A DNA stretch of 63,179 bases from an uncultured Bacilli bacterium (lineage in GTDB: Bacteria; Bacillota_I; Bacilli_A; RF39; UBA660). A program made the position numbers and the translations under genes. This document shows positions 2,381 to 39,606 of the stretch, piece by piece (within the stretch, counting starts at the first letter, position 1; the number at the start of each line of letters is the position of its first letter). Under the pieces are notes generated by a model, which had not been told where the DNA came from, made no database searches, and worked only from the letters and a program-made list of their open reading frames with translations. The stretch lies in NCBI GenBank assembly GCA_949841325.1, contig CATKZK010000004.1, positions 1 through 63,179 of the forward strand, given 5' to 3'.

Positions 2381-2464
2381 TTCGGCTATTAGCAAACAGA
2401 AAATTTAGAATTTGACATATCGATATAAGTATAGTAAACTTATACCAGTTGGAGGTAATAGACT

Positions 2465-2557
2465 ATGAAAAATATAATTGTAAATAATAACTTATTATTA
2501 GCCTTATTATTAAACCGATTATGTAGTAATGGGTCTATTTTGAGTGCTATTAAATAA
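2465..2557 (+). CDS. Leu-rich leader peptide MKNIIVNNNLLLALLLNRLCSNGSILSAIK (30 aa)
   Basis: RBS GGAGGT about 8 nt upstream; TTA TTA TTA GCC TTA TTA TTA AAC CGA TTA; directly upstream of LeuRS; absent from the ORF track. Confidence 0.8.
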   Translation: MKNIIVNNNLLLALLLNRLCSNGSILSAIK

Positions 2558-2614
2558 AAAAATAAAGCAATTCAATAGAGTCAATACTACATTTAAGTAT
2601 TGGCTCTATTTTTT
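2523..2614 (+). promoter_or_regulatory. Transcription attenuator (antiterminator 2523-2548 with 2566-2590; terminator 2574-2614)
   Basis: 15-bp stem AATAGAGTCAATACT/AGTATTGGCTCTATT (one G-U pair) plus U tract; its 5' arm can alternatively pair with GTAGTAATGGGTCTATTTTGAGTGCT inside the leader ORF. Confidence 0.75.
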
Positions 2615-2638
2615 ATTAAAAAGAAAGGAATGATTAAA

Positions 2639-5050
2639 ATGTATAATTTTAGAGAAATTGAAAAGAAATGGCAAGGTAAATGGTATAACGAAAAGAGTTT
2701 TAAAGCAATAGATTTTCATCCAACCAAACCAAAATATTATGTTCTATATGAGTTCTATAATATTAGTGGTAATCTACATATGGGGCATTTGAAAGGAACA
2801 GTCCCTGCAGATGCATTAGCTAGAATGAAAAGACTTCAAGGATATAATGTATTGTTTCCAATAGGTGGGGATTCTTTTGGATTACCTGCAGAAAATGCAG
2901 CTATAAAAACTGGTATCAATCCTAAAGATTTTGTTGATAATGGAATGAAAAATGCAATAGAGCAATCTAGAAAAATTGGACTTTCATTTGATTATGATAG
3001 AAGTTTTTGTACTAGTGATGAAGATTATTATAAATGGACACAATGGATTTTTCTTCAACTTTTGAAAGAAGGTAAAGCATATAAGGAGAAAGGTGTTGTA
3101 AACTATTGTCCAAATTGTAAGACAGTACTTTCGAATGAAGATAGTCAAGGTGGAGAATGTGATAGATGTCATGGTCAAGTCGTACAAGAAGAAAGATGGG
3201 TTTGGTTTCTAAAAATGAAAGAATACTCTGAAAAACTACTTGGAAATATTGAGAGAATTGATATGAATGAAAATCTAAAAGAACTTCAAAGAAATTGGAT
3301 AGGAAAATCAGAAGGTATGCAAGTGTCTTTTGATATAGTAGATGAAAATAATAATGTAATTGATAATGCTGGTATATTTACTACTTGTGTAGAAACTATT
3401 TATGGTATTACTTTTCTTGTAATGGCTCCAGAGCATAATTTTATTGAAGAACACAAAAATAAAATTCTAAATTATGATGAAGTATGTGAATATAAAAAAG
3501 AAACATCATATAGAAGTGAACTGGATAGAATGGCTAATCAAAAGGAAAAAACAGGTTGCCTTGTTCAAGGAATCTATGCAATAAATCCTGTTAATAATAA
3601 AAAAGTTCCTATATATCTAGCTGACTTTGTTCTTTCAGGATACGGTACAGGTATAGTTATGGCTGTTCCTACTCATGATCAAAGAGATTATGAATTTGCA
3701 AAAAAATTTAATATACCAATGATTCAAGTAATTGAAGGAAATACTGAAAATCAAGCAGTTGAAAAATACGAATATATAAAAGATAATAGTAAAATGTTAA
3801 ATTCTGAAGAATTTACTGGAATAAATGTGAAAGACGCTAAAGAAAAAATTGCAGATAAACTTATTGAAATGGGTGTTGGTAAAAAGCAAATAAATTATAA
3901 AATGCAAGATTGGTCATTTAATAGGCAAAGATATTGGGGCGAACCTTTTCCAGTCGTTTTCTGTGATAAATGTGGTATAGTCCCGGTTCCAGAAAATGAA
4001 CTTCCAATTACTTTGCCTAAAACAGAAGATTATATGCCAAATGAAAAGGGAAATTCTCCACTTTCTAAAATAGAAGATTGGGTAAATTGTAAATGTCCTA
4101 AATGTGGAAAAAAGGCAAAAAGAGAAACTGATACTATGCCAAACTGGGCAGGTTCTTCTTGGTACTGGCTTAGATATTGTGATCCTCATAATAATGAATC
4201 ACTTGCTGATATAGAAAAACTAAAATATTGGGGAAGTGTTGATTGTTATACAGGAGGTACTGAGCATATAACTCGACATGTTCTATATGCATTCTTTTGG
4301 CAAAATTTTTTATATGAAATAGGTGCAGTTCCTACAAGAGATCCATTTAAAAGAAAAATGGGAAGTGGATTGATTCTTGATGATACTGGAAAGAAAATGA
4401 GTAAGAGTTCTACAAATGGTGTATCACCAATAGAAGTAATTGATAAATATGGTAGTGATGTTGCAAGACTTCATGTTCACTTTTTGGCGGCATATGAAGA
4501 TAATACTCCTTGGACATATGATGGAATAAATGGCATAACTAATTTTATAGATAAAGTTTGGAATTTGCAAAATATGATTAAGGGTACTGAAATCTCTACT
4601 GAACATATTTATGAAACCAATAATTTGATAAAGAAAGTAACAGAAGATATAGAAAATCTTAAACTTAATACTTGCATATCAGCTTTTATGACTTTTATAA
4701 AAAAAATTAAAGAAGATAAATTTATAAGTAAAGAAGAACTAAAAACATTCCTAGTATTATTAAATCCTTTGGCTCCCCATATTACAAGTGAAATGTATGA
4801 AATAATTTTTAAAGAGAATATTATAGATGTAGAGTGGCCTAAATTTGATGAGAATTATTTAATTCGTGATGAAATTAATCTTCCTATTCAGATAAATGGA
4901 AAAATGAAAAAAACACTGTCTGTTAGGAAAGATGCTACCCAAGATGAAGTTATAAATTTCATAAAGAATACATATCCAGAATTAATATGTGGTGAAATTA
5001 AAAAAATTATTTACATTCAAGGTAAAATAATCAATATAATGTGTAAATAG
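2639..5050 (+). CDS. leuS: Leucyl-tRNA synthetase, divergent
   Basis: HMGH and KMSKS class I motifs; GDSFGLPAEN; CP1 editing motif GYGTGIVMAVPTHDQRD; Zn knuckles; C-terminal PIQINGK; start moved to ATG 2639 behind RBS AGAAAGGA. Confidence 0.92.
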   Translation: MYNFREIEKKWQGKWYNEKSFKAIDFHPTKPKYYVLYEFYNISGNLHMGHLKGTVPADALARMKRLQGYNVLFPIGGDSFGLPAENAAIKTGINPKDFVDNGMKNAIEQSRKIGLSFDYDRSFCTSDEDYYKWTQWIFLQLLKEGKAYKEKGVVNYCPNCKTVLSNEDSQGGECDRCHGQVVQEERWVWFLKMKEYSEKLLGNIERIDMNENLKELQRNWIGKSEGMQVSFDIVDENNNVIDNAGIFTTCVETIYGITFLVMAPEHNFIEEHKNKILNYDEVCEYKKETSYRSELDRMANQKEKTGCLVQGIYAINPVNNKKVPIYLADFVLSGYGTGIVMAVPTHDQRDYEFAKKFNIPMIQVIEGNTENQAVEKYEYIKDNSKMLNSEEFTGINVKDAKEKIADKLIEMGVGKKQINYKMQDWSFNRQRYWGEPFPVVFCDKCGIVPVPENELPITLPKTEDYMPNEKGNSPLSKIEDWVNCKCPKCGKKAKRETDTMPNWAGSSWYWLRYCDPHNNESLADIEKLKYWGSVDCYTGGTEHITRHVLYAFFWQNFLYEIGAVPTRDPFKRKMGSGLILDDTGKKMSKSSTNGVSPIEVIDKYGSDVARLHVHFLAAYEDNTPWTYDGINGITNFIDKVWNLQNMIKGTEISTEHIYETNNLIKKVTEDIENLKLNTCISAFMTFIKKIKEDKFISKEELKTFLVLLNPLAPHITSEMYEIIFKENIIDVEWPKFDENYLIRDEINLPIQINGKMKKTLSVRKDATQDEVINFIKNTYPELICGEIKKIIYIQGKIINIMCK

Positions 5051-7606: not shown

Positions 7607-8812
7607 TTACTTTCTCATTCTTCTTTTTTTCCTATTATGTTTTCTTCTCTTTTGAATATATAAAACAAGTATTAAGATTACTATAAGGATATATCCATAT
7701 TTTTTTACTACTTTTTTCCAAGAAATTTTTAAGTCTTCTTTTAAGAATAATTCTTCTTCTTTTATCAATTCACCATTATAAAAATATTTGATAGAGCCTA
7801 ATTTAGATTGCTCTTTATCACGAAATGACAATTTTTCTTTGCCATTATACTGGTAATCAAATAAGCTATTATCAAAATCCTTTGGTAAATATTTCGTAAT
7901 GTTTTCATTTGGGTGGACTTTATACATATCAGTTTTTGAAAGAGATACAGGAAGTTCAATAATAGTGTCCTCTGTTGTCATGAGATTTTGATTTTGAAAA
8001 TGCGAATCAAGAAACTGAGTGAGTGCAAGTGCATCTTTTAAATTGTAAAAATTTCCATAGACATAAGGAGCTCCCATTGTGATGATGAGTACTTCATGTC
8101 CGTTTGTAGATATCAAGGCTGCAATACATACCCCAGCTTTAGAAGTATATCCAGTCTTACTTCCTAGAATTCTTGAAGTATCTAGATTCATAAGACGATT
8201 ATACACTTTAATTGTAGCATTGATTGTTTTCCCATTCGCTAGAGTATATTCTTTCGTACAATATATTTCTTTAAATGTCGGATTTTGTAAAGCATATTTT
8301 AAGATGAGTAATACATCAGACGCTGTACTATAGTGATTTTCTATATCAAGTCCTGTAACGTTTACAAAGTGTGTATTTTTAGCTCCTATTTTTTCTGCAA
8401 GCGTATTCATTTTTTCAACAAAAGCAGCAATGCCATTAGAACTTGTAAACGCTAATGCTTGGGTAGCATCTGCTCCTGAAGGCAAAATAGAGGCATAGAG
8501 TAAATCACGTGCCGAGAAAGTTTCTCCAATGTTTAACCCTGCAACAGAGGCATCATAAGGGATACCTGCAAGCATGTCACTAGTAATCGTAACTTCTTTT
8601 TCTAAATCAGGAATTTCTTCAATTGCCGTGATAGTTGTCATTATTTTAGTTAGAGAAGCAATATTTGCTCTTTCATCACTATTCTTTTCTAATAGAAGTT
8701 TATCTTCTGTTAAATCATAGAGTAATACTTTGTCCGAATAAGTGTCTGGCAAGGCAATCGCACTTACAGATATGGGAATTAAACATAAAATGAATAAGAC
8801 TATTTTTTTCAT
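7607..8812 (-). CDS. D-alanyl-D-alanine carboxypeptidase (peptidase S11, low-MW PBP)
   Basis: SLTK (SxxK), SGA, KTG motifs; signal peptide; C-terminal TM anchor. Confidence 0.9.
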   Translation of the reverse strand: MKKIVLFILCLIPISVSAIALPDTYSDKVLLYDLTEDKLLLEKNSDERANIASLTKIMTTITAIEEIPDLEKEVTITSDMLAGIPYDASVAGLNIGETFSARDLLYASILPSGADATQALAFTSSNGIAAFVEKMNTLAEKIGAKNTHFVNVTGLDIENHYSTASDVLLILKYALQNPTFKEIYCTKEYTLANGKTINATIKVYNRLMNLDTSRILGSKTGYTSKAGVCIAALISTNGHEVLIITMGAPYVYGNFYNLKDALALTQFLDSHFQNQNLMTTEDTIIELPVSLSKTDMYKVHPNENITKYLPKDFDNSLFDYQYNGKEKLSFRDKEQSKLGSIKYFYNGELIKEEELFLKEDLKISWKKVVKKYGYILIVILILVLYIQKRRKHNRKKRRMRK

Positions 8813-31913: not shown

Positions 31914-34532
31914 TTATTTTTGTTTTTTCTTCTTTTCTTTTCTATGTATCTTTAATTTATTTCCATATTTTGGAAGAGTGAAGATTAGAATAAGTGTCGT
32001 ACCACTGATGATAAGTCCTACTCCTGCATAAGGAGTTTTATATTTTAAAGTAATTTTATGTGTTCCTTTTTCACAAGGAAATGTAAGTAGTGCGTCTCCA
32101 AGTTTTTCTGTTTTGACTTCTTTTCCATCGACATATACATGCCATCCTGTATCATATGGAATAGAGGTATATACCATCATATTTTCTTCTAAGGTAATGT
32201 TTCCTTTTATTAAAGATTCTTTAAAAGAAGTCATATCAAATTTATATTTATTTAAAGTATCTCTTGCTTCTAAGAATGCCGCTTGATTTATCGAGTATAC
32301 ATTAAATGCTGCTGAATAGTAGGTATTAAATCCTACATAGATTTCGATTTCTTCTTCTCCTGATGCAATATTAATCACTTTTGCTTCGCCATAATCTTCT
32401 ACATAGTCATAATAGATATCTGGATTTTCTTCCATCACTGTCGTATAGTTGTCATTTTTATAGTATAAAGAAGAACCAATGACAACAAAATCTAAATTGA
32501 CATCATCACTATAAAAATAAAGATTATCACCAGGGTTTTTATATGAATATTTTAAGACAACCATGGTATCATTAGAATAAATTTCTTCTGTTCTTAAAAG
32601 CATAGATGGTTCTAATACATTTTGTATGCCAGTTGCAAGTTCCATATATTCATTTTGTATATGGAATGGGTTTGCTTCTGTATAATGCCAATTTCGCAAG
32701 TCTTCCTTTACTCCATAAATAAGTCCCACATTTTCATCAAAGCGATTCGCAGTTTCTTCAACAGTTGCGATCTCATGATAACGTGTTGTATCATTCGTTA
32801 TACCTATAAAATATTTGATATCAAACATCAAGTCATATATTGGTGTTGATTGAACGTAATAATAGCTGTTAATTTCATTTCCTGGCATACCCAAATTGTG
32901 TTGTAAAATGGCCATGCTTTCATAAGCCATAGAGGAAAAAGTAGTCATTCCATAATAGTTATACCAAGAGGGGTCATTAAGTGTAAGCATAGACGTATTT
33001 TCAATACGATAGAATAATTCTTCATCTTGTTCTTTTACTTTGTCTAATAGTTCTTCTGTCACTTGGTAATCTTCATAGAATATGGCCATGACTTGTGTGA
33101 TATCCCAGTTATATATTGTACTTACAATGACATCAACCGCAGCAACAAATATGAATGCTAAATAGACAAGCGTATGATATTTTTGTAAGAAATGATAACA
33201 AGCATAGAAGAGGAAATAAAGACTCAAAAGAATCATATTGATTATAATCATATTTTGAGTCATTCCTTCCCAATTTTCTTGCAAGGCGAGTACGAGTAAC
33301 GAGAGAAGAAATAAATAGCTAATTGTAATGAGAGGAAACTTTAATTTTTTTATGTTAAAGAGTCCATAAGTTGCAATTGTTAAAAGAACAAAGCTATAAA
33401 GAAATGAATAGCGGTATGGCAAATCATTTGGTACATGAAAAGCATGAAGAATATAGTCCAGTTGAGGAACAAAGAACGCTAAAATAAAGAACCCTAAGAT
33501 AAAAAGATAAGCCACTTTATTTTTTAAAGGGATATCGATATTTAGTAAATATAGGAATAAAAGGGCAACAGCTAAAATACCACATGATATGTTTGGATTC
33601 GTTATGGCATCACTTGCAAATACTGTTGTATCTACGCCTGTTAAGTGTCCAAGAATATAATCGATCCATTGAAAATCATAGTACTGACTTGTAGGAATTG
33701 TTCCACCCGTTGCAGAAATGGAAGTCATAGAAGATGCCATTGGCAGTAAGAAAACAGCAACCATTGCTCCAGCAGTAATAGAACTAATACCAAAATATAG
33801 ACATCTTTTTCCTAATAATTTGAAACGACTAATCCACTCTTCTTTTTTTACCTTTTTAATCTTTAAAGGTGTTTTATAAAGTGTATAAAAGAGAAAATAG
33901 ATAACTGAAAAGATACAAACCATGTAGCCAATGAAGTAATTTGCAAATAACAATAGAGCTAAGCTAAAAGTATATAGTTTCCATTTTTGTTTATTGACAA
34001 TATTTTCTATTCCTAATGTTATGAGAGGAAGAAAAACCATCCCATCTAACCACATAATATTCCAATAATAAGCTTGAAAGTATGCTTGAAAAGCATAGAG
34101 AATCGCGATTGGTATTAAGAATAGTTCTTTACTTTCAAACTTTTTAGATAGATAGTAAACCATTGTTACTCCTGAAACGACAGCTTTTAATCCAATAATG
34201 AAGGAGTAGGAAGTTAAAAGATTTTTTCTTGAAAAGAATAACATGATTATATTAAAGGGACTGGATAAATAGTTTAAAAAATTTCTAAAGAAGGGGAGTC
34301 CCATGGCCATGTTAAAAGAGTAGGTAAATCCACTAAAGTTTTGAATTCGATCATAAAATTCTCCAAGCATTGGTCCATACTGGTGAAAAAAGTCGACACA
34401 TAAAAGTGATTGAGGACCAAAAGGAGTAACATGATTTAATCGATAAATAATACTAATAATGATAATTCCTATAATAAAGGTAAGACAATAAAGTTTATTC
34501 TCTTGTAATTTATTTCCTATTCTTTTTAACAT
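31914..34532 (-). CDS. YfhO-family membrane protein (GT-C-like)
   Basis: DFFHQY, YWNIMWLDG, PYRYSF and C-terminal SIPYDTGW…ITLKY. Confidence 0.82.
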   Translation of the reverse strand: MLKRIGNKLQENKLYCLTFIIGIIIISIIYRLNHVTPFGPQSLLCVDFFHQYGPMLGEFYDRIQNFSGFTYSFNMAMGLPFFRNFLNYLSSPFNIIMLFFSRKNLLTSYSFIIGLKAVVSGVTMVYYLSKKFESKELFLIPIAILYAFQAYFQAYYWNIMWLDGMVFLPLITLGIENIVNKQKWKLYTFSLALLLFANYFIGYMVCIFSVIYFLFYTLYKTPLKIKKVKKEEWISRFKLLGKRCLYFGISSITAGAMVAVFLLPMASSMTSISATGGTIPTSQYYDFQWIDYILGHLTGVDTTVFASDAITNPNISCGILAVALLFLYLLNIDIPLKNKVAYLFILGFFILAFFVPQLDYILHAFHVPNDLPYRYSFLYSFVLLTIATYGLFNIKKLKFPLITISYLFLLSLLVLALQENWEGMTQNMIIINMILLSLYFLFYACYHFLQKYHTLVYLAFIFVAAVDVIVSTIYNWDITQVMAIFYEDYQVTEELLDKVKEQDEELFYRIENTSMLTLNDPSWYNYYGMTTFSSMAYESMAILQHNLGMPGNEINSYYYVQSTPIYDLMFDIKYFIGITNDTTRYHEIATVEETANRFDENVGLIYGVKEDLRNWHYTEANPFHIQNEYMELATGIQNVLEPSMLLRTEEIYSNDTMVVLKYSYKNPGDNLYFYSDDVNLDFVVIGSSLYYKNDNYTTVMEENPDIYYDYVEDYGEAKVINIASGEEEIEIYVGFNTYYSAAFNVYSINQAAFLEARDTLNKYKFDMTSFKESLIKGNITLEENMMVYTSIPYDTGWHVYVDGKEVKTEKLGDALLTFPCEKGTHKITLKYKTPYAGVGLIISGTTLILIFTLPKYGNKLKIHRKEKKKKQK

Positions 34533-34706: not shown

Positions 34707-36035
34707 ATGAAGAAATGGTCTATATTATTTATCATATTATTTTTCATGGTTATTGGATTTGCCGCCGTTAATACAGTACTAGATTATGAAGGTCTTGTCG
34801 AAATTGCAAAAAAAGTAGAAGATTTTAAAATAGTCATTACAGATTTAGTTGTTGATGATATTGATGTATTAGGGAATATAGATATAAATGAAAAAGAATT
34901 TTCATTTGAAGGAAAAAATATTGAATATACTATTTCAAATGATAGTACTTTATATGATGCAGAAGTGTATTTGAAATGTATCATTTTAGAAGAAGAATTG
35001 CTTTATCATGTTGGGGTCATTCCAGCACAAGAAATGTTGACTAAAAGTTTTTCTTTAACTGAAAAACAAGTGGGGAATTGTATGATAGAAACAACAGGAA
35101 TTGATAGAACTTCTGTTGTTTTAGATTCCTGTGAATTTAATATTGGTGACTCATTTGAATTTGCATATACGGGAAATGAACAAAAAATATTTGTCCCATG
35201 TAATGGCGAATATAAATTAGAAACATGGGGTGCTGAAGGAGGAAGTAGTTTAAAGTCGTCAAACTATTCAGGAGGATATGGAGCTTATGCAGTTGGTGAA
35301 ATTGCGCTTATTAGAAATAGACCTCTCTTTATATATGTTGGCGGTGAAGGGAAAAAAGTCATTGTTCCAAATTCAACTGTTGAAGGAGGCTATAATGGAG
35401 GAGGTTTTGGCCAAACGCTTCCTACTTCGGGGCCTGGAGCATCTGCATCAGATACTTCTGCAGGAAGTGGAGGTGGTGCTACACATATTGCAAGCTATCC
35501 AGGATTACTTTCATCTCTTTCAGAAAAAGTTGAAAATGTATTTATTGTATCAGGTGGAGGTGGAGGCGGATCTTATGTCAATTCAGGTTCTGGCGGTGGC
35601 AATTACGGAGGAGGAGGCCATGCTGGTGGAATAAAGGGTGGGAATACTAGAAATTATGGTGAGCATACTATCTTATATAATCGATATGGAATTGGCGGAG
35701 ATCAAACAGGAGAAGCAGGAACAGGTTCTTCTTATGTGATTTTTGGTAAAGCGGGAATAGGAGCTTTTAAAGAGTCTGGAGGAGGAGGTGGTGGATATTA
35801 TGGTGGACTTGCTGGAGGATTATGCGGAGGCGGTGGTGGTTCTTCTTATATTGGAAATCCTTTACTAACTAATAAAGTAATGTATTGCTATCAATGTATT
35901 ACTTCAAAAGAAGAAAGTACAAAAACAATATCCACTAATAATGTTTCGGCAAAGCCAATTGCAAACTCTGCAAAGTCTGGTGCTGGTTATGCAAAAATTA
36001 CACTTATTCGCCTAATAAATCAGAAGGAAAATTGA
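34707..36035 (+). CDS. Exported/surface protein with a glycine-rich C-terminal domain
   Basis: N-terminal TM; YKLETWGAEGG, GGGGATHIA, GGGGGGS repeats; terminal GAGYAKIT. Confidence 0.75.
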   Translation: MKKWSILFIILFFMVIGFAAVNTVLDYEGLVEIAKKVEDFKIVITDLVVDDIDVLGNIDINEKEFSFEGKNIEYTISNDSTLYDAEVYLKCIILEEELLYHVGVIPAQEMLTKSFSLTEKQVGNCMIETTGIDRTSVVLDSCEFNIGDSFEFAYTGNEQKIFVPCNGEYKLETWGAEGGSSLKSSNYSGGYGAYAVGEIALIRNRPLFIYVGGEGKKVIVPNSTVEGGYNGGGFGQTLPTSGPGASASDTSAGSGGGATHIASYPGLLSSLSEKVENVFIVSGGGGGGSYVNSGSGGGNYGGGGHAGGIKGGNTRNYGEHTILYNRYGIGGDQTGEAGTGSSYVIFGKAGIGAFKESGGGGGGYYGGLAGGLCGGGGGSSYIGNPLLTNKVMYCYQCITSKEESTKTISTNNVSAKPIANSAKSGAGYAKITLIRLINQKEN

Positions 36036-36142
36036 ATATTTCCTTTTTCTTTTGTTTAAAAGAAGAGAAAACGCCCTTTTTACTTGCAAAAGTGATGGAA
36101 AAGTAGTATCATTTAGACGTTGCTATAAAGGGAGTGGAGTTT

Positions 36143-37951
36143 ATGGATAAAATTATAAATATTGCGGTAGTTGCTCACGTTGATGCTGGAAAGTCAACTT
36201 TAGTAGACGCATTATTACAACAAAATGGTGTTTTTGGTAGTCATGAACAATTAGTAGAACAAGTAATGGATTCAGATGACATAGAAAGAGAAAGAGGAAT
36301 TACGATTTACTCAAAAAACTGTGCCATTCGTTATAAAGATTATAAAATTAATATTGTTGATACACCAGGTCATGCTGATTTTTCAAGTGAAGTAGAACGT
36401 GTCATTAAAACGGTTGATACTGTTATTTTACTTGTTGATTCGGCAGAAGGTGTTATGCCTCAAACAAGGTTCGTATTAAAGAAAGCTTTAGAACAAAAGC
36501 TTCGTCCAATTTTATTTATTAATAAACTGGATAAAAAAGATGCTCGTATTGAGGAAGTTGTTAATATGACGTTTGATTTGTTTGTTGATTTGAATGCAAC
36601 AGATGAACAACTTGATTTTCCAATTGTCTATGGTATAGCAAAAGAGGGAATCGCGACACTCGATCCAAATGATATCAGTCAAAAAAGTATTGCTCCATTG
36701 CTTGAAACAATCTTAAAACAAGTAAGTCCTTATGAAGGAAATGAAAATGACGATTTGCAATTACAAATCTCTTCACTTGCCTATGATGGTTATATCGGTC
36801 GTTTAGGAATCGGACGTATTAAATCAGGAAAAATAAAGAATAATGAACTTGTGACACTTGTTAAAAATAATGGTGAAGAAACTAGCTTTAAAGTTACGAA
36901 GCTATTTGTTAATGAAGGATTAGATAAAGTAGAAAAGACAGAGGCTTACTATGGTGATATTGTAACGATTGCTGGATGTAATCATTTGACCATTGGAGAT
37001 ACTGTTTGTACTCATGGAAAACCAAATCCACTTCCACCTATTGAAATTGAAAAGCCAACTCTTTCAATGAATTTCTTAGTTAATAATTCTCCATTTGCAG
37101 GAAAGAGTGGAAAGTTTTTAACAAGCCGTCATATAAAAGAAAGACTTGATAAAGAATTAGAGACTAATGTAGGATTAGAAGTTGAAGAACTTCCAGCAAG
37201 TGATGGCTTTAAAGTATCAGGACGTGGGGAGTTACATTTATCTATCTTGCTTGAAAATATGCGTCGTGAGGGATATGAGTTATCTGTGTCAAAACCTCAA
37301 GTATTAATTCAAGAAATTGATGGCCAAAAATGTGAACCTTTTGAAACGGTTATTGTCAATACACCAAGTGATTTTGCATCGACTATTATCAGTGATTTAC
37401 AAGAGAGAAAAGGTCAACTTATGAGTATGACAACAAGTGAAGATAATTATACACACTTGGAGTTTTCTGCACCAACTCGTGGATTAATTGGATACCGTTC
37501 TGCTTTTATTACAAATACTAAAGGAGAAGGTATTATGGTTCGTTCGTTTGATTCTTATAAACCGTATGCGGGAGAATTGACGACGAGAAAAAATGGTGTT
37601 CTTGTTTCAATGGAATCAGGTAAAACTTTAGGATTTTCGCTTTACAATTTACAAGATCGTGGGCAACTTATTGTAGGTCCTGCAACCGATGTTTATGTAG
37701 GAATGGTAATCGGTATTCATAATCGTGATAATGACTTAAATGTCAATCCATGTAAAAATAAACAGCTTACGAATACTCGTGCTTCAGGTTCAGATGATGC
37801 GATTGCTTTAATTAAACCAAGGACCTTCACATTAGAAGAGGCTTTAGAGTTTATCGAGGATGATGAATATGTAGAGATTACACCAGATGATATTCGTATT
37901 CGTAAAGCTATATTAGATCCAAATGAACGTTATCGTATTAATAGAAAGTAG
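36143..37951 (+). CDS. typA: Translational GTPase TypA/BipA
   Basis: AHVDAGKST, RGITI, DTPGHADF, NKLD, GRGELHL, BipA C-terminus. Confidence 0.96.
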   Translation: MDKIINIAVVAHVDAGKSTLVDALLQQNGVFGSHEQLVEQVMDSDDIERERGITIYSKNCAIRYKDYKINIVDTPGHADFSSEVERVIKTVDTVILLVDSAEGVMPQTRFVLKKALEQKLRPILFINKLDKKDARIEEVVNMTFDLFVDLNATDEQLDFPIVYGIAKEGIATLDPNDISQKSIAPLLETILKQVSPYEGNENDDLQLQISSLAYDGYIGRLGIGRIKSGKIKNNELVTLVKNNGEETSFKVTKLFVNEGLDKVEKTEAYYGDIVTIAGCNHLTIGDTVCTHGKPNPLPPIEIEKPTLSMNFLVNNSPFAGKSGKFLTSRHIKERLDKELETNVGLEVEELPASDGFKVSGRGELHLSILLENMRREGYELSVSKPQVLIQEIDGQKCEPFETVIVNTPSDFASTIISDLQERKGQLMSMTTSEDNYTHLEFSAPTRGLIGYRSAFITNTKGEGIMVRSFDSYKPYAGELTTRKNGVLVSMESGKTLGFSLYNLQDRGQLIVGPATDVYVGMVIGIHNRDNDLNVNPCKNKQLTNTRASGSDDAIALIKPRTFTLEEALEFIEDDEYVEITPDDIRIRKAILDPNERYRINRK

Positions 37952-38364: not shown

Positions 38365-39606
38365 TTAATGATTGATAAATTCATCTTCAATAAAACTTGT
38401 TTTAATTAATCTTTTAAATAAATGTTCCGAACAAATTAAATCGAATTCGCCAATAAATTCATAGATAGTTGGATTGAAATCTATTTTAAATTTGTTTAAT
38501 CCATTATACTTACTTTTTTCATCAAATACACCAGTTACACCATTCATATCACAGAAGTTAAAGTATGGTTTGTATCTTTCAAAAATAGCATAGTAGAGGA
38601 AATGATGTGGATTTAAATAGGCATATTCATTACTATAGCCACTAATTAAGATAGAAACTCGATTATAATGTTTAATAACGAGTGCTCCACCTACAAAAGC
38701 TGTCCGCTGTTTCTTTAATTCATTTGTAGCTTTCACGATTTTTTCTTTATATGCTTGTAATTTTCTATCTGAGTTCATTTTTGAATTCAATGTTTTTTGA
38801 TTTACCTTTGTTTGAATCATTTCATTATAGTGATCATTAATACGCGCTTCTTTATCATGAGCTTCGCGAATAGCTGATAAGTAACGTTCAAAGTCTACTT
38901 GAACAAGGACTAAGTCAATTGAATTGTCACGGCTAAATACATTAAAGTAATTGCGATAATAAGTGATTGGGTGTTTGGTTTTTCCTTTGATAAATTGATA
39001 AAAGATATCGATATCTTTAGGAGAACCTGTAACTAACTTCATTCCATAGTCTAAGCAATGTTTAATTTTCTTTCTGTAATTGCGTTTTAATTTTTTGTAA
39101 TCAAATTGGCGTAAATTCACATAAGCATTAAACTTTGGTTGCATTAGTTCAAACTCAAAAGATTCCAATCTTCTTTTTACATTCATCGATTTTAATTCAT
39201 CAATTACTTTTACATTGTTATTGTAGTCTACAATAAAGTTTCTCGCTTTTGTTGTTTGACCAATGATGATTTCTGGATTAAATTTAATAAAGATAAAATC
39301 TTTTCCTTTATAGTACTCTCTTAGAGCATCAAAAAAACTTTGTACGAGGTCTTTATCATAATAGTTGATTAAAAAGCCTTTTGGAGCGTATCCGTATTTT
39401 GCATGATTTGTGATTTTTCTAATGAGGATAAGAGATGCAGCTTTGATATTTCCAGCATCATCTACATAGCCAATATAATCATAGTTATAGCCATATTCAC
39501 TCATTAAAAGAGCATATTTAGGAGTTTGACAATAGTTGTTTAAAGCATGAAATTTGGCAAACTCATCAAATTGTTGGTTAGTCAATTCTACTATCTTCAT
39601 AGTCAT
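38365..39606 (-). CDS. FemAB/MurM-family peptidoglycan bridge peptidyltransferase
   Basis: FemAB-like pattern: YAPKGFLINY, coiled-coil insert, CDMNG, GLNKFKIDF…EFIGEF. Confidence 0.8.
   Translation of the reverse strand: MTMKIVELTNQQFDEFAKFHALNNYCQTPKYALLMSEYGYNYDYIGYVDDAGNIKAASLILIRKITNHAKYGYAPKGFLINYYDKDLVQSFFDALREYYKGKDFIFIKFNPEIIIGQTTKARNFIVDYNNNVKVIDELKSMNVKRRLESFEFELMQPKFNAYVNLRQFDYKKLKRNYRKKIKHCLDYGMKLVTGSPKDIDIFYQFIKGKTKHPITYYRNYFNVFSRDNSIDLVLVQVDFERYLSAIREAHDKEARINDHYNEMIQTKVNQKTLNSKMNSDRKLQAYKEKIVKATNELKKQRTAFVGGALVIKHYNRVSILISGYSNEYAYLNPHHFLYYAIFERYKPYFNFCDMNGVTGVFDEKSKYNGLNKFKIDFNPTIYEFIGEFDLICSEHLFKRLIKTSFIEDEFINH

Follow-up and report, generated by a model that had tools for sequence, protein, structure and literature searches.

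A predicted leucine leader-peptide attenuator upstream of leuS in a lineage of uncultured gut Bacilli

The window, that is, the whole stretch of DNA analysed, is 63,179 nucleotides long and comes from an uncultured mouse-gut bacterium. It carries leuS, whose product contains the Pfam families PF13603, PF00133 and PF08264, corresponding to the catalytic, editing and anticodon-binding domains of LeuRS, and has relatives of 67-97% identity encoded in gut Bacilli MAGs; no other synthetase gene was found within the window. The leader that precedes leuS is laid out in Table 1. Its promoter (2412-2440) scores 10 out of 12, and TTGAC together with a TAnAAT-like −10 element is present in nearly all of the 34 aligned copies described below, as is, in most copies and at the same site, a Shine-Dalgarno (SD) motif of the GGAG/GAGG type. 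Transcription would start near 2447. Upstream of 2401 the sequences of the window and of a contig from a related strain part company.

Table 1. Features of the leuS leader (positions in the window)
Feature	Coordinates	Strand	Details
Sigma-70-type promoter	2412..2440	+	−35 TTGACA 2412-2417, 17-nt spacer, −10 TAAACT 2435-2440
Leader-ORF Shine-Dalgarno GGAGG	2451..2455	+	9 nt before the ATG at 2465
Region 0, AAUAGAC	2457..2463	+	between SD and AUG; complementary to 2533-2539
Leader ORF, 30 codons, MKNIIVNNNLLLALLLNRLCSNGSILSAIK	2465..2557	+	ATG 2465; stop 2555-2557
Regulatory codon run UUA UUA UUA GCC UUA UUA UUA	2492..2512	+	six UUA in seven positions
Region 1, ACCGAUUAU	2514..2522	+	pairs with 2526-2534, small hairpin, then U-rich stretch
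Region 2, GUAGUAAUGGGUCUAUU, antiterminator strand inside the leader ORF	2523..2539	+	
Region 3, AAUAGAGUCAAUACUAC, strand common to both helices	2574..2590	+	terminator uses 2574-2588
Region 4 and U tract	2596..2614	+	terminator 3' arm 2596-2610; T6 2609-2614
leuS	2639..5050	+	SD about 2625-2629; ATG 2639; 803-aa leucyl-tRNA synthetase

The leader ORF uses seven TTA codons and one TTG for leucine; six of the UUA codons are clustered and two Leu codons lie outside the cluster. Beyond the ORF an intrinsic terminator (stem 2574-2588/2596-2610, 15 bp with four G-C pairs, 7-nt loop) ends 24 nt before the start of leuS, and transcripts stopped by it are expected to end at about 2612-2616. An earlier note, made from the sequence alone, had listed a promoter, a ribosome-binding site, a 30-codon ORF with seven UUA codons and a 15-bp terminator with a U tract, and all of them lie where it had placed them.

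Region 3 can pair on either side. As the 5' arm of the terminator it contributes to a structure of −18.2 kcal/mol, calculated as a hairpin, or −20.1 kcal/mol, calculated as a duplex; as the partner of region 2 it forms an antiterminator of 17 positions (2523-2539:2574-2590) with two internal mismatches and a duplex energy of −18.2 kcal/mol. The antiterminator had been drawn with its 5' strand inside the ORF, from 2523 to 2548, and this held for 2523-2539; the extension to 2548 did not stand, the inner helix that it adds being not conserved in all copies. Region 2 has two further partners. With region 1 it builds a small hairpin (2514-2522:2526-2534, −5.9 kcal/mol) that also appears in the RNAalifold consensus, and its 3' half, 2533-2539, is the partner of region 0, which repeats the AAUAGA that begins the terminator 5' arm; the region 0 pairing belongs to the minimum-free-energy fold. 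The fold of 2440-2640 has a z-score of −3.4 against shuffles.

A run of Leu codons is not by itself an argument. In sequence of 28% GC, three 7-codon windows with at least six Leu codons were found against 1.2 expected from dinucleotide shuffles. Since Leu-rich windows are not rarer than chance would have it, the case rests on the combination of the parts and on their conservation, both of which are strong; it was conservation, and not the rarity of the run, that ruled out a Leu-rich ORF arisen by chance. The pattern of region 2 occurs once in the window and in none of the shuffles, and a second copy of the cassette was not found in the window with up to three mismatches allowed.

Among related gut Bacilli, 14 other species-level genomes have the full cassette upstream of leuS; in a fifteenth, L012, part of it is present at a contig end. 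These genome copies were found through LeuRS homology, independently of the leader sequence. The cassette is also present in a further 23 metagenome contigs, a set that is biased because most of region 2 was fixed in the search pattern. The full-length copies, 34 in total, have an SD and the in-frame ATG without exception, and the distance from the ATG to the CGA takes only the values 45, 48, 51 or 54 nt, the indels being multiples of three. The reading frame of the leader is free of in-frame stops, whereas the remaining two frames contain 142 and 132 when the copies are summed. Every copy has between four and six Leu codons in the 7-codon window, most of them six. Leu codons of the run change synonymously, from UUA to CUA or CUU, and its fourth codon varies freely among GCC, GAC, GTT, TGC, GGC, AAC and others. 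Region 2 falls within a stretch of 29 nt, 2513-2541, in which there is hardly any variation even at third codon positions.

The terminator is paired in 97.3% of cells and covaries at six of its 15 pairs, with 23 doubly changed cells, a value reached by none of 500 shuffles. The two features looked for in homologs, conserved Leu codons and a covarying terminator stem, were thus both found. The antiterminator is paired in 86% of cells. Its mismatches 2529 x 2584 and 2533 x 2580 recur in nearly every copy, and of the region 3 positions it is 2584 and 2580 that show the freest covariation with region 4. The other changes in region 3 are nearly all transitions that leave the pairing with region 2 intact as G-U or G-C. 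A single compensatory change specific to the antiterminator was seen, G2523:C2590 to U:A in L075. The region 1:2 hairpin is paired in 100% of cells in the 34 copies, with a nearly invariant sequence. Both this hairpin and the antiterminator show almost no two-sided covariation, because region 2 itself is almost invariant. The region 0 helix is paired in 94.5% of cells over the same copies and the changes on the region 0 side are mostly wobble-compatible, yet two-sided covariation is absent, so that its support is moderate.

An SD-led ORF, a cluster of cognate Leu codons, a terminator and a mutually exclusive antiterminator, all of them parts of a classical attenuator, are present in this leader. 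We consider it probable that the element is a ribosome-mediated (leader-peptide) transcription attenuator that reports the charging of Leu-tRNA and controls read-through into leuS. In the proposed mechanism, transcription from near 2447 would yield a leader RNA with two mutually exclusive folds, region 3 pairing either with region 4, as the intrinsic terminator, or with region 2, as the antiterminator. When charged Leu-tRNA is scarce, a ribosome would stall on the six clustered UUA codons and its footprint would melt or cover region 1 and the other leader-internal helices. Region 2, left exposed ahead of the stalled ribosome, would then capture the emerging region 3, the terminator would not form and the polymerase would enter leuS. 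When Leu-tRNA is plentiful, the ribosome would pass over region 2 to the stop codon, regions 3 and 4 would pair and transcription would end. Should the leader not be translated, region 2 would be sequestered by region 1, region 0 or both, again giving termination. Hence, judged from the sequence and from the modelled folds, the leader most likely raises the production of the synthetase at low charged Leu-tRNA. The conserved region 1 hairpin makes this a full four-region (trp-like) design, in which region 1 would act as an anti-antiterminator and possibly as an RNA-polymerase pause hairpin; region 0 may serve as an additional anti-antiterminator on untranslated RNA.

Modelling of the folds with a 28-nt ribosome footprint reproduced the earlier proposal that stalling at UUA frees the antiterminator strand, as far as the six clustered codons are concerned. 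With the A site at 2492, 2498, 2504 or 2510, nascent RNA extending to 2595 folded into the region 2:3 helix, whereas a footprint placed at the stop codon, or a full leader free of ribosomes, gave the terminator. The seventh UUA codon (2519-2521) had been counted among the sensing codons, but it is too near the antiterminator strand to help: with the A site modelled at 2519 the ribosome sits on region 2 and blocks the antiterminator. The antiterminator is also the best thermodynamic structure of nascent RNA without a ribosome, so basal termination would depend on co-transcriptional kinetics. The stop codon of all copies lies 1-16 nt 3' of region 2 and 11-41 nt 5' of region 3; in the window, a terminating ribosome would leave region 2 just behind it and not under it, which counts against the mechanism. 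RNA polymerase runs ahead of the ribosome in Bacillus subtilis, which would likewise work against the mechanism unless the polymerase pauses. Since the mechanism needs a ribosome that keeps pace with the polymerase, the leader offers a test case for transcription-translation coordination outside Proteobacteria. Contigs assembled from RNA-labelled runs end at 2544, 2576 and 2635, and one of 7.9 kb runs across the leader; they are uninformative on termination, and may stem from DNA carry-over. The earlier suggestion of a response to LeuRS inhibitors finds no support here.

T-box regulation of aminoacyl-tRNA synthetase genes is the textbook arrangement in Bacillota, where leader-peptide attenuation is considered rare. 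A T-box or another known RNA family was ruled out at this locus by the Rfam searches and by a motif search. Rfam gave no T-box or other family in 2300-2700 at E<=10, no T-box in the whole window at the gathering score, and no match up to E = 10 to Leu_leader (RF00512) or to the Leu/phe leader (RF01743); the T-box motif GGUGGNACCGCG was absent. The same search did find T-boxes with a Leu CUU specifier ahead of leuS in two close relatives, L015 and L023, so that the earlier reading of the locus as free of a T-box is borne out. A leuS T-box (RF00230) would occupy the same position at the same gene, respond to the same signal, tRNA-Leu charging, and have the same terminator/antiterminator output. 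It differs in binding uncharged tRNA directly, with no need for translation, and its motifs and structure are absent here. Across 135 kb of leader-bearing contigs, which include few synthetase genes with free upstream regions, no T-boxes were found. The comparative evidence supports the view that leader-peptide attenuation has taken the place of the T-box at leuS.

The cassette had been described for leuS, but it is not specific to that gene. Unexpectedly, it also stands upstream of acyl-CoA ligase genes, always directly ahead of the downstream gene and on the same strand. Pfam, NCBIfam and PDB sequence searches with the ligase returned generic acyl-CoA, malonyl-CoA or oxalyl-CoA ligase relatives only, and nothing useful on its substrate came from a literature search for isovalerate activation. 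This location suggests a candidate link between leucine supply and acyl-CoA metabolism. The cassette would, in a broader reading that we hold to be possible but unlikely, be a mobile Leu-tRNA-sensing module with a small regulon in these reduced gut Bacilli, namely LeuRS, the acyl-CoA ligase and in some genomes a HipA_C-like protein, instead of a one-off replacement of a T-box. If that were true, the ligase might act on isovalerate or on further branched short-chain acids, and the activated products might feed leucine synthesis or serve as branched-chain lipid primers at low leucine; ribosome and polymerase would be effectively coordinated in this Bacillota lineage, perhaps by way of the region 1:2 pause hairpin, and the invariant NRLCSNGSI segment could add a nascent-peptide role.

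Three other explanations of the leader were weighed against attenuation. In a translation-independent riboregulator, the almost invariant 29-nt block 2513-2541 could be where a protein, a tRNA or a small ligand attaches and thereby switches between terminator and antiterminator; a TRAP-like factor, or LeuRS acting on its own mRNA, would be candidates and the ORF would be incidental. Invariance at third codon positions does exceed what the peptide needs, and the region 1:2 hairpin is compact and conserved. However, conservation extends to features that serve translation only: the SD and the ATG are kept, indels preserve the frame, Leu codons change synonymously and the placement of the stop is retained. 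Peptide coding and pairing with regions 0, 1 and 3 impose overlapping constraints that account for the invariance, and no known RNA family matches; the presence of the cassette before acyl-CoA ligase genes argues in addition against LeuRS autoregulation. This makes the riboregulator very unlikely. It seems scarcely probable, too, that the ORF stands for a small protein in its own right, complete with a terminator, and that leuS is expressed without any regulation, either by constitutive leakage past that terminator or from another promoter. The good SD, the conserved peptide and a hairpin that is a strong terminator would suit such an arrangement, but the terminator ends only 24 nt short of the leuS ATG, an interval in which no promoter was identified, the cassette always directly precedes a same-strand gene, and in all copies the terminator 5' arm is complementary to the strand in the ORF, with substitutions that preserve the pairing. 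The invariance of synonymous sites, which points to selection at the RNA level, counters it too.

The C-terminal segment NRLCSNGSI(L) is identical in almost all 34 copies, as would be expected if a small molecule such as free leucine or an antibiotic made the nascent peptide itself arrest the ribosome, in place of or besides the sensing of Leu-tRNA, in the manner of TnaC and ErmCL. The nucleotides, however, are as invariant as the residues, so that conservation of the peptide may be a by-product of RNA pairing. In the model, moreover, a ribosome stalled within the segment would occupy region 2 and prevent the antiterminator from forming, and clustered Leu codons are the hallmark of sensing at the codon level. 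We regard arrest by the peptide as extremely improbable, and attenuation by ribosome stalling at the clustered UUA codons remains the preferred reading.

Known leaders resemble this one in part. Classical attenuators have been predicted for leuS of Streptomyces (Seliverstov et al. 2005, PMC1262725; PMC8079986): the gene is the same, and a short ORF with consecutive Leu codons precedes a hairpin with a U tract and an antiterminator alternative. Those leaders belong to high-GC Actinobacteria, are transcribed leaderless and have 12 codons with three Leu, whereas here the ORF is SD-led, the Leu codons number six to eight and regions 0 and 1 add further pairings; a relationship in sequence is not to be expected. 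Apart from the Leu run, the published leuL2 peptide of S. lividans, MRAVRLLLSEPR (PMC8079986), on which this comparison is based, does not resemble the leader peptide here. The leu operon of E. coli and Salmonella (leuL, RF00512) and E. coli pheST (pheM) share the runs of regulatory codons and the 1:2, 2:3 and 3:4 helices. As pheST shows, ribosome-mediated attenuation can control an aminoacyl-tRNA synthetase (also cited in PMC1262725). Both systems are, however, proteobacterial, and the leu operon leader controls biosynthesis genes and not a synthetase.

Closer in lineage, a His leader peptide has been predicted in Bacillus ahead of a hisS paralogue and of hisZ (Naville and Gautheret 2010, PMC2965389). 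It is likewise a 'regular' leader peptide of Firmicutes, and substitutes for a T-box at a gene of a synthetase family; amino acid, sequence and lineage differ, and its target is a paralogue and not the housekeeping synthetase. The same authors remark that attenuators hop between genes (PMC2965389), and the cassette appears to do likewise. Leu-sensing leader peptides of Bacillota include the Leu-rich peptide of the Staphylococcus aureus ilv-leu operon (PMC5794164) and the Leu/phe leader of Lactococcus lactis (RF01743, PMC2864571), but branched-chain amino-acid biosynthesis operons are among the targets reported for them, and none of these targets is leuS. What is new here is the sequence family and the leuS target in Bacillota; the mechanism is already known. 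The family, delimited by exact-pattern and peptide scans of the DNA covered, is absent from Rfam, and annotation pipelines would call the leader ORF a hypothetical small protein.

Among close relatives in a single lineage of uncultured gut Bacilli, leuS thus occurs in three states, behind a Leu T-box, behind a plain promoter or behind a Leu leader peptide, a natural example of sensors of tRNA charging replacing one another. The plain promoter was seen at eight sister leuS loci inspected directly, which have short plain 5' UTRs. At more distant LeuRS loci, neither a scan for Leu-rich ORFs nor a scan for terminators revealed divergent leaders. In L015, the T-box is separated from leuS by a small membrane-protein ORF.

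In the window, leuS is preceded by the arrangement that the earlier note had described: a promoter with its TTGACA box at about 2412, a ribosome-binding site with a 30-codon ORF containing seven UUA codons, and a 15-bp terminator with a T tract just upstream of the leuS ribosome-binding site, with the 5′ strand of an antiterminator lying inside the ORF past the Leu run. All these elements were located (see table), with 24 nt between the T tract and the leuS ATG. The leader region folds better than shuffled sequence (z = -3.4).

Coordinates of the leader, of leuS and of features in the window and in related loci (L handles)
Feature	Sequence	Coordinates	Strand	Remarks
Promoter	window	-35 2412-2417; -10 2435-2440		TTGACA, 17-nt spacer, TAAACT
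Leader Shine-Dalgarno	window	2451-2455		GGAGG
Region 0	window	2457-2463		AAUAGAC, spacer between SD and AUG
Leader ORF	window	2465-2557		30 codons, MKNIIVNNNLLLALLLNRLCSNGSILSAIK
Leu run	window	2492-2512		UUA x3, GCC, UUA x3
Further leader Leu codons	window	2519; 2540		seventh UUA; UUG
Region 1	window	2514-2522		
Region 2	window	2523-2539		GUAGUAAUGGGUCUAUU, within the ORF
Region 3	window	2574-2590		terminator 5′ arm plus two loop bases
Terminator hairpin	window	2574-2588 / 2596-2610		15 bp, into T6 (2609-2614); 3′ arm is region 4
leuS	window	2639-5050	+	803-aa leucyl-tRNA synthetase; catalytic, editing and anticodon-binding domains
leuS T-box	L015	1994-2567		Rfam
leuS T-box	L023	2406-3000		Rfam
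Second T-box	L015	7561-7775		downstream of leuS
Ligase-type copy	L084	956-2800	+	
Ligase-type copy	L086	4207-6100	+	
Ligase-type copies	L087, L091, L092, L093, L097, L101, L103			
Copy before 307-aa protein	L089	1449-2600	+	
Second small ORF	L092	5150-4990	-	54 aa; also in L093, L091
DD-carboxypeptidase	window	7607-8812	-	
YfhO	window	31914-34532	-	
442-aa protein	window	34707-36035	+	PF12810 match
BipA/TypA	window	36134-37951		
FemAB	window	38365-39606	-	

Region 2 is complementary to region 3 over 17 positions with two internal mismatches, and the duplex energy of this antiterminator is -18.2 kcal/mol versus -20.1 for the terminator arms. Part of region 2 is also occupied by a small hairpin predicted with RNAalifold (2514-2522 : 2526-2534, -5.9 kcal/mol), and region 0 is able to pair with its 3′ half. 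The leader therefore follows the four-region trp/leu plan and has one more partner upstream. For the modelling, a ribosome was represented by a footprint kept unpaired, extending 12 nt upstream and 15 nt downstream of the first P-site nucleotide. When its A site is placed on UUA 2492, 2498, 2504 or 2510 the RNA up to 2595 adopts the region 2:3 antiterminator, while on the seventh UUA half of region 2 is covered and the antiterminator is lost. The terminator forms with the modelled ribosome at the stop codon, and also in the full-length leader lacking a ribosome. The weak point of the model is that the antiterminator is the thermodynamic optimum of the ribosome-free nascent leader RNA as well, and termination on untranslated RNA therefore needs earlier local pairings; on a kinetic argument, the region 0:2 and 1:2 pairings would form first in such RNA, permitting termination.

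Conservation was analyzed in two sets of sequences. The first comprised 80 species-level genomes collected by LeuRS homology, unbiased as to leader sequence; the full cassette was found at the same distance from leuS in 14 of them (L001-L011, L013, L016 and L075), and in L012 it is cut by the contig end. Across these copies the -35 box, SD, ATG, Leu run, terminator and a 29-nt block, AACCGAUUAUGUAGUAAUGGGUCUAUUUU, align; the block is nearly invariant at all codon positions, and free variation occurs in the loop, the spacer from the stop to region 3 and the N-terminal codons. The second set came from metagenome contigs searched for an exact pattern that fixed most of region 2; this set, biased for region 2 only, added 23 copies. 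An in-frame ATG is present in 34/34 full-length copies, preceded in most by a GGAG/GAGG-type motif, and the distance from ATG to CGA is 45, 48, 51 or 54 nt, so that leader indels are all multiples of three. Stops in the other two frames, summed over the 34 copies, number 142 and 132. Within the Leu run the fourth codon is free (Ala, Asp, Val, Cys, Gly, Asn, Ile or Tyr); its neighbours remain Leu, with UUA swapped for CUA or CUU in several copies, a change that alters the RNA but not the amino acid. The stop codon lies 1-16 nt past region 2 and 11-41 nt ahead of region 3 in every one of the 34. A 7,939-nt contig of run X25, from a related strain, has promoter, leader and leuS in common with the window, with about 20 substitutions in 800 nt; its sequence upstream of window position 2401 is unrelated, and homology therefore starts about 10 nt before the -35 box.

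In the same 34 copies the terminator pairs in 97.3% of cells, and 6 of its 15 pairs are changed on both sides (23 cells). The pairing, the number of doubly changed cells and the covariation score were each reached by 0/500 shuffles, the count of pairs with double changes by 2/500, and pairing falls to 34-54% when the partner is shifted by 1-3 columns. Antiterminator pairing amounts to 86% of cells versus 17-46% when shifted. Positions 2580 and 2584 of region 3, mismatched in the antiterminator, are the freest to change, with compensating changes in region 4. At the other positions of region 3, nearly all substitutions (A to G facing U, or a C/U exchange facing G) leave region 2, itself invariant, still paired, and region 4 accommodates them too. 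In L075, G2523:C2590 is replaced by U:A, and since 2590 lies in the terminator loop this compensation concerns the antiterminator specifically. Regions 1 and 2 being invariant, they speak neither for nor against the small hairpin. A 29-nt block in which every base serves the code plus two or three alternative partners would be expected to vary as little as this one does.

The conserved, apparently translated ORF, the covariation of the terminator, the retained antiterminator pairing and the modelled ribosome positions support the proposal of the earlier note, and classical leader-peptide attenuation is quite likely the mechanism at leuS. If so, the response to LeuRS inhibitors that the note suggested would be a logical prediction of it. 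The absence of a T-box, also claimed by that note, stands: Rfam 15 at gathering scores gave a single tRNA (tRNA-Cys) and no T-box in the whole window, and at E <= 10 the 2300-2700 region yielded chance-level microRNA and sRNA matches only, with no T-box, Leu_leader or Leu/phe leader. Relatives carry other solutions. L015 and L023, whose LeuRS are 73-75% identical, have a T-box upstream of leuS with the specifier loop GAA-CUU-G (Leu); in L015 a 118-aa predicted membrane-protein ORF separates the two, and leuS is followed by a second T-box. In eight other close relatives (L014, L017, L018, L019, L025, L032, L042 and L064) the 300 nt upstream of leuS show a plain promoter-like site with a short 5′ UTR; T-box and leader peptide are both absent, leaving leuS apparently without RNA-level regulation in these lineages. 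In a rough neighbour-joining LeuRS tree the leader-bearing genes form one clade with both T-box loci nested within, and L075 is an outlier. The coexistence of the three types of loci, together with the tree, implies a regulatory switch within the lineage; to judge from these sequences, T-box and leader would have replaced one another inside it, in either direction and in one or more events.

The cassette is not confined to leuS. Among the 23 metagenome copies, 10 have a confirmed leuS downstream, nine a ~520-aa AMP-binding acyl-CoA ligase, two (L081 and L089) a 307-aa protein that weakly matches a HipA_C-like kinase domain (27.1 bits, under the Pfam cut-off of 30.5) and one (L082) a gene without family match; the remaining copy, L100, is cut at the contig end before any downstream gene. 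The presence of the cassette before other genes argues against LeuRS-specific autoregulation, and the ligase copies suggest a Leu-tRNA-sensing regulon. These copies constitute a separate subtype, in which the first Leu codons are CUA and the terminator carries CAGUAC/GUACUG, and this fits a Leu-sensing module duplicated onto other genes. The ligases contain PF00501 and PF13193, with generic ligases (fatty-acyl, malonyl and oxalyl-CoA) as their neighbours in NCBIfam and PDB; that they act on isovalerate or some other branched short-chain acid is only a guess. In L092, L093 and L091 a second small ORF lies between the Leu attenuator and the ligase. In L092 it encodes a hydrophobic, Leu-rich peptide (MNHYINFSLLLFLVLKYMNDRYILC...) and ends in its own hairpin and T tract, GCCTATCA-TTAT-TGATAGGC TTTTTG. 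This ORF could represent a second attenuator in tandem with the first, or else specify a small membrane peptide.

The leader is a new sequence family, while the mechanism itself is already known: the enterobacterial trp, leu, his and pheST leaders work by the same classical attenuation. Classical attenuators have been predicted before leuS in Streptomyces avermitilis and S. coelicolor (PMC1262725), and transcriptomics revealed a leuL2 leader, MRAVRLLLSEPR, in S. lividans (PMC8079986). A full-text literature search combining leuS, leader peptide and attenuation returned the Streptomyces cases only. In Bacillota classical attenuation is rare yet has precedents. In 2005 it was stated not to be known for any Firmicutes synthetase gene (PMC1262725); Naville and Gautheret later predicted His leader peptides in place of T-boxes at a Bacillus hisS paralogue and hisZ (PMC2965389), and ilv-leu of S. 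aureus is controlled by a Leu-rich attenuator peptide (PMC5794164). As far as could be found, no earlier case concerns the housekeeping leuS in a lineage of Bacillota. What the present one adds is a comparison of three leuS states between related genomes, together with acyl-CoA ligases as unexpected targets.

The closest LeuRS relatives, 67-97% identical, come from gut MAGs (rabbit, mouse, ruminant and human) that carry the labels uncultured Bacilli, Mollicutes or Firmicutes. The leuS region of the window (G+C about 28%) occurs nearly verbatim in mouse-gut metagenome runs, and in RNA-labelled public runs the locus is present as assembled contigs only. TTA accounts for 8/50 Leu codons in leuS (CTT 20, CTA 11) versus 49% across 30 window genes, which could ease translation under poor tRNA-Leu(UAA) charging or could be mere codon bias tied to expression level. 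Elsewhere in the window, the 442-aa product of one gene has a match to PF12810, the ALK/LTK glycine-rich domain (E = 7.5e-32); YfhO, BipA/TypA, FemAB and a DD-carboxypeptidase are among the genes in its neighbourhood. Judging from these genes, the organism probably makes peptidoglycan despite the 'Mollicutes' label of the closest MAG.
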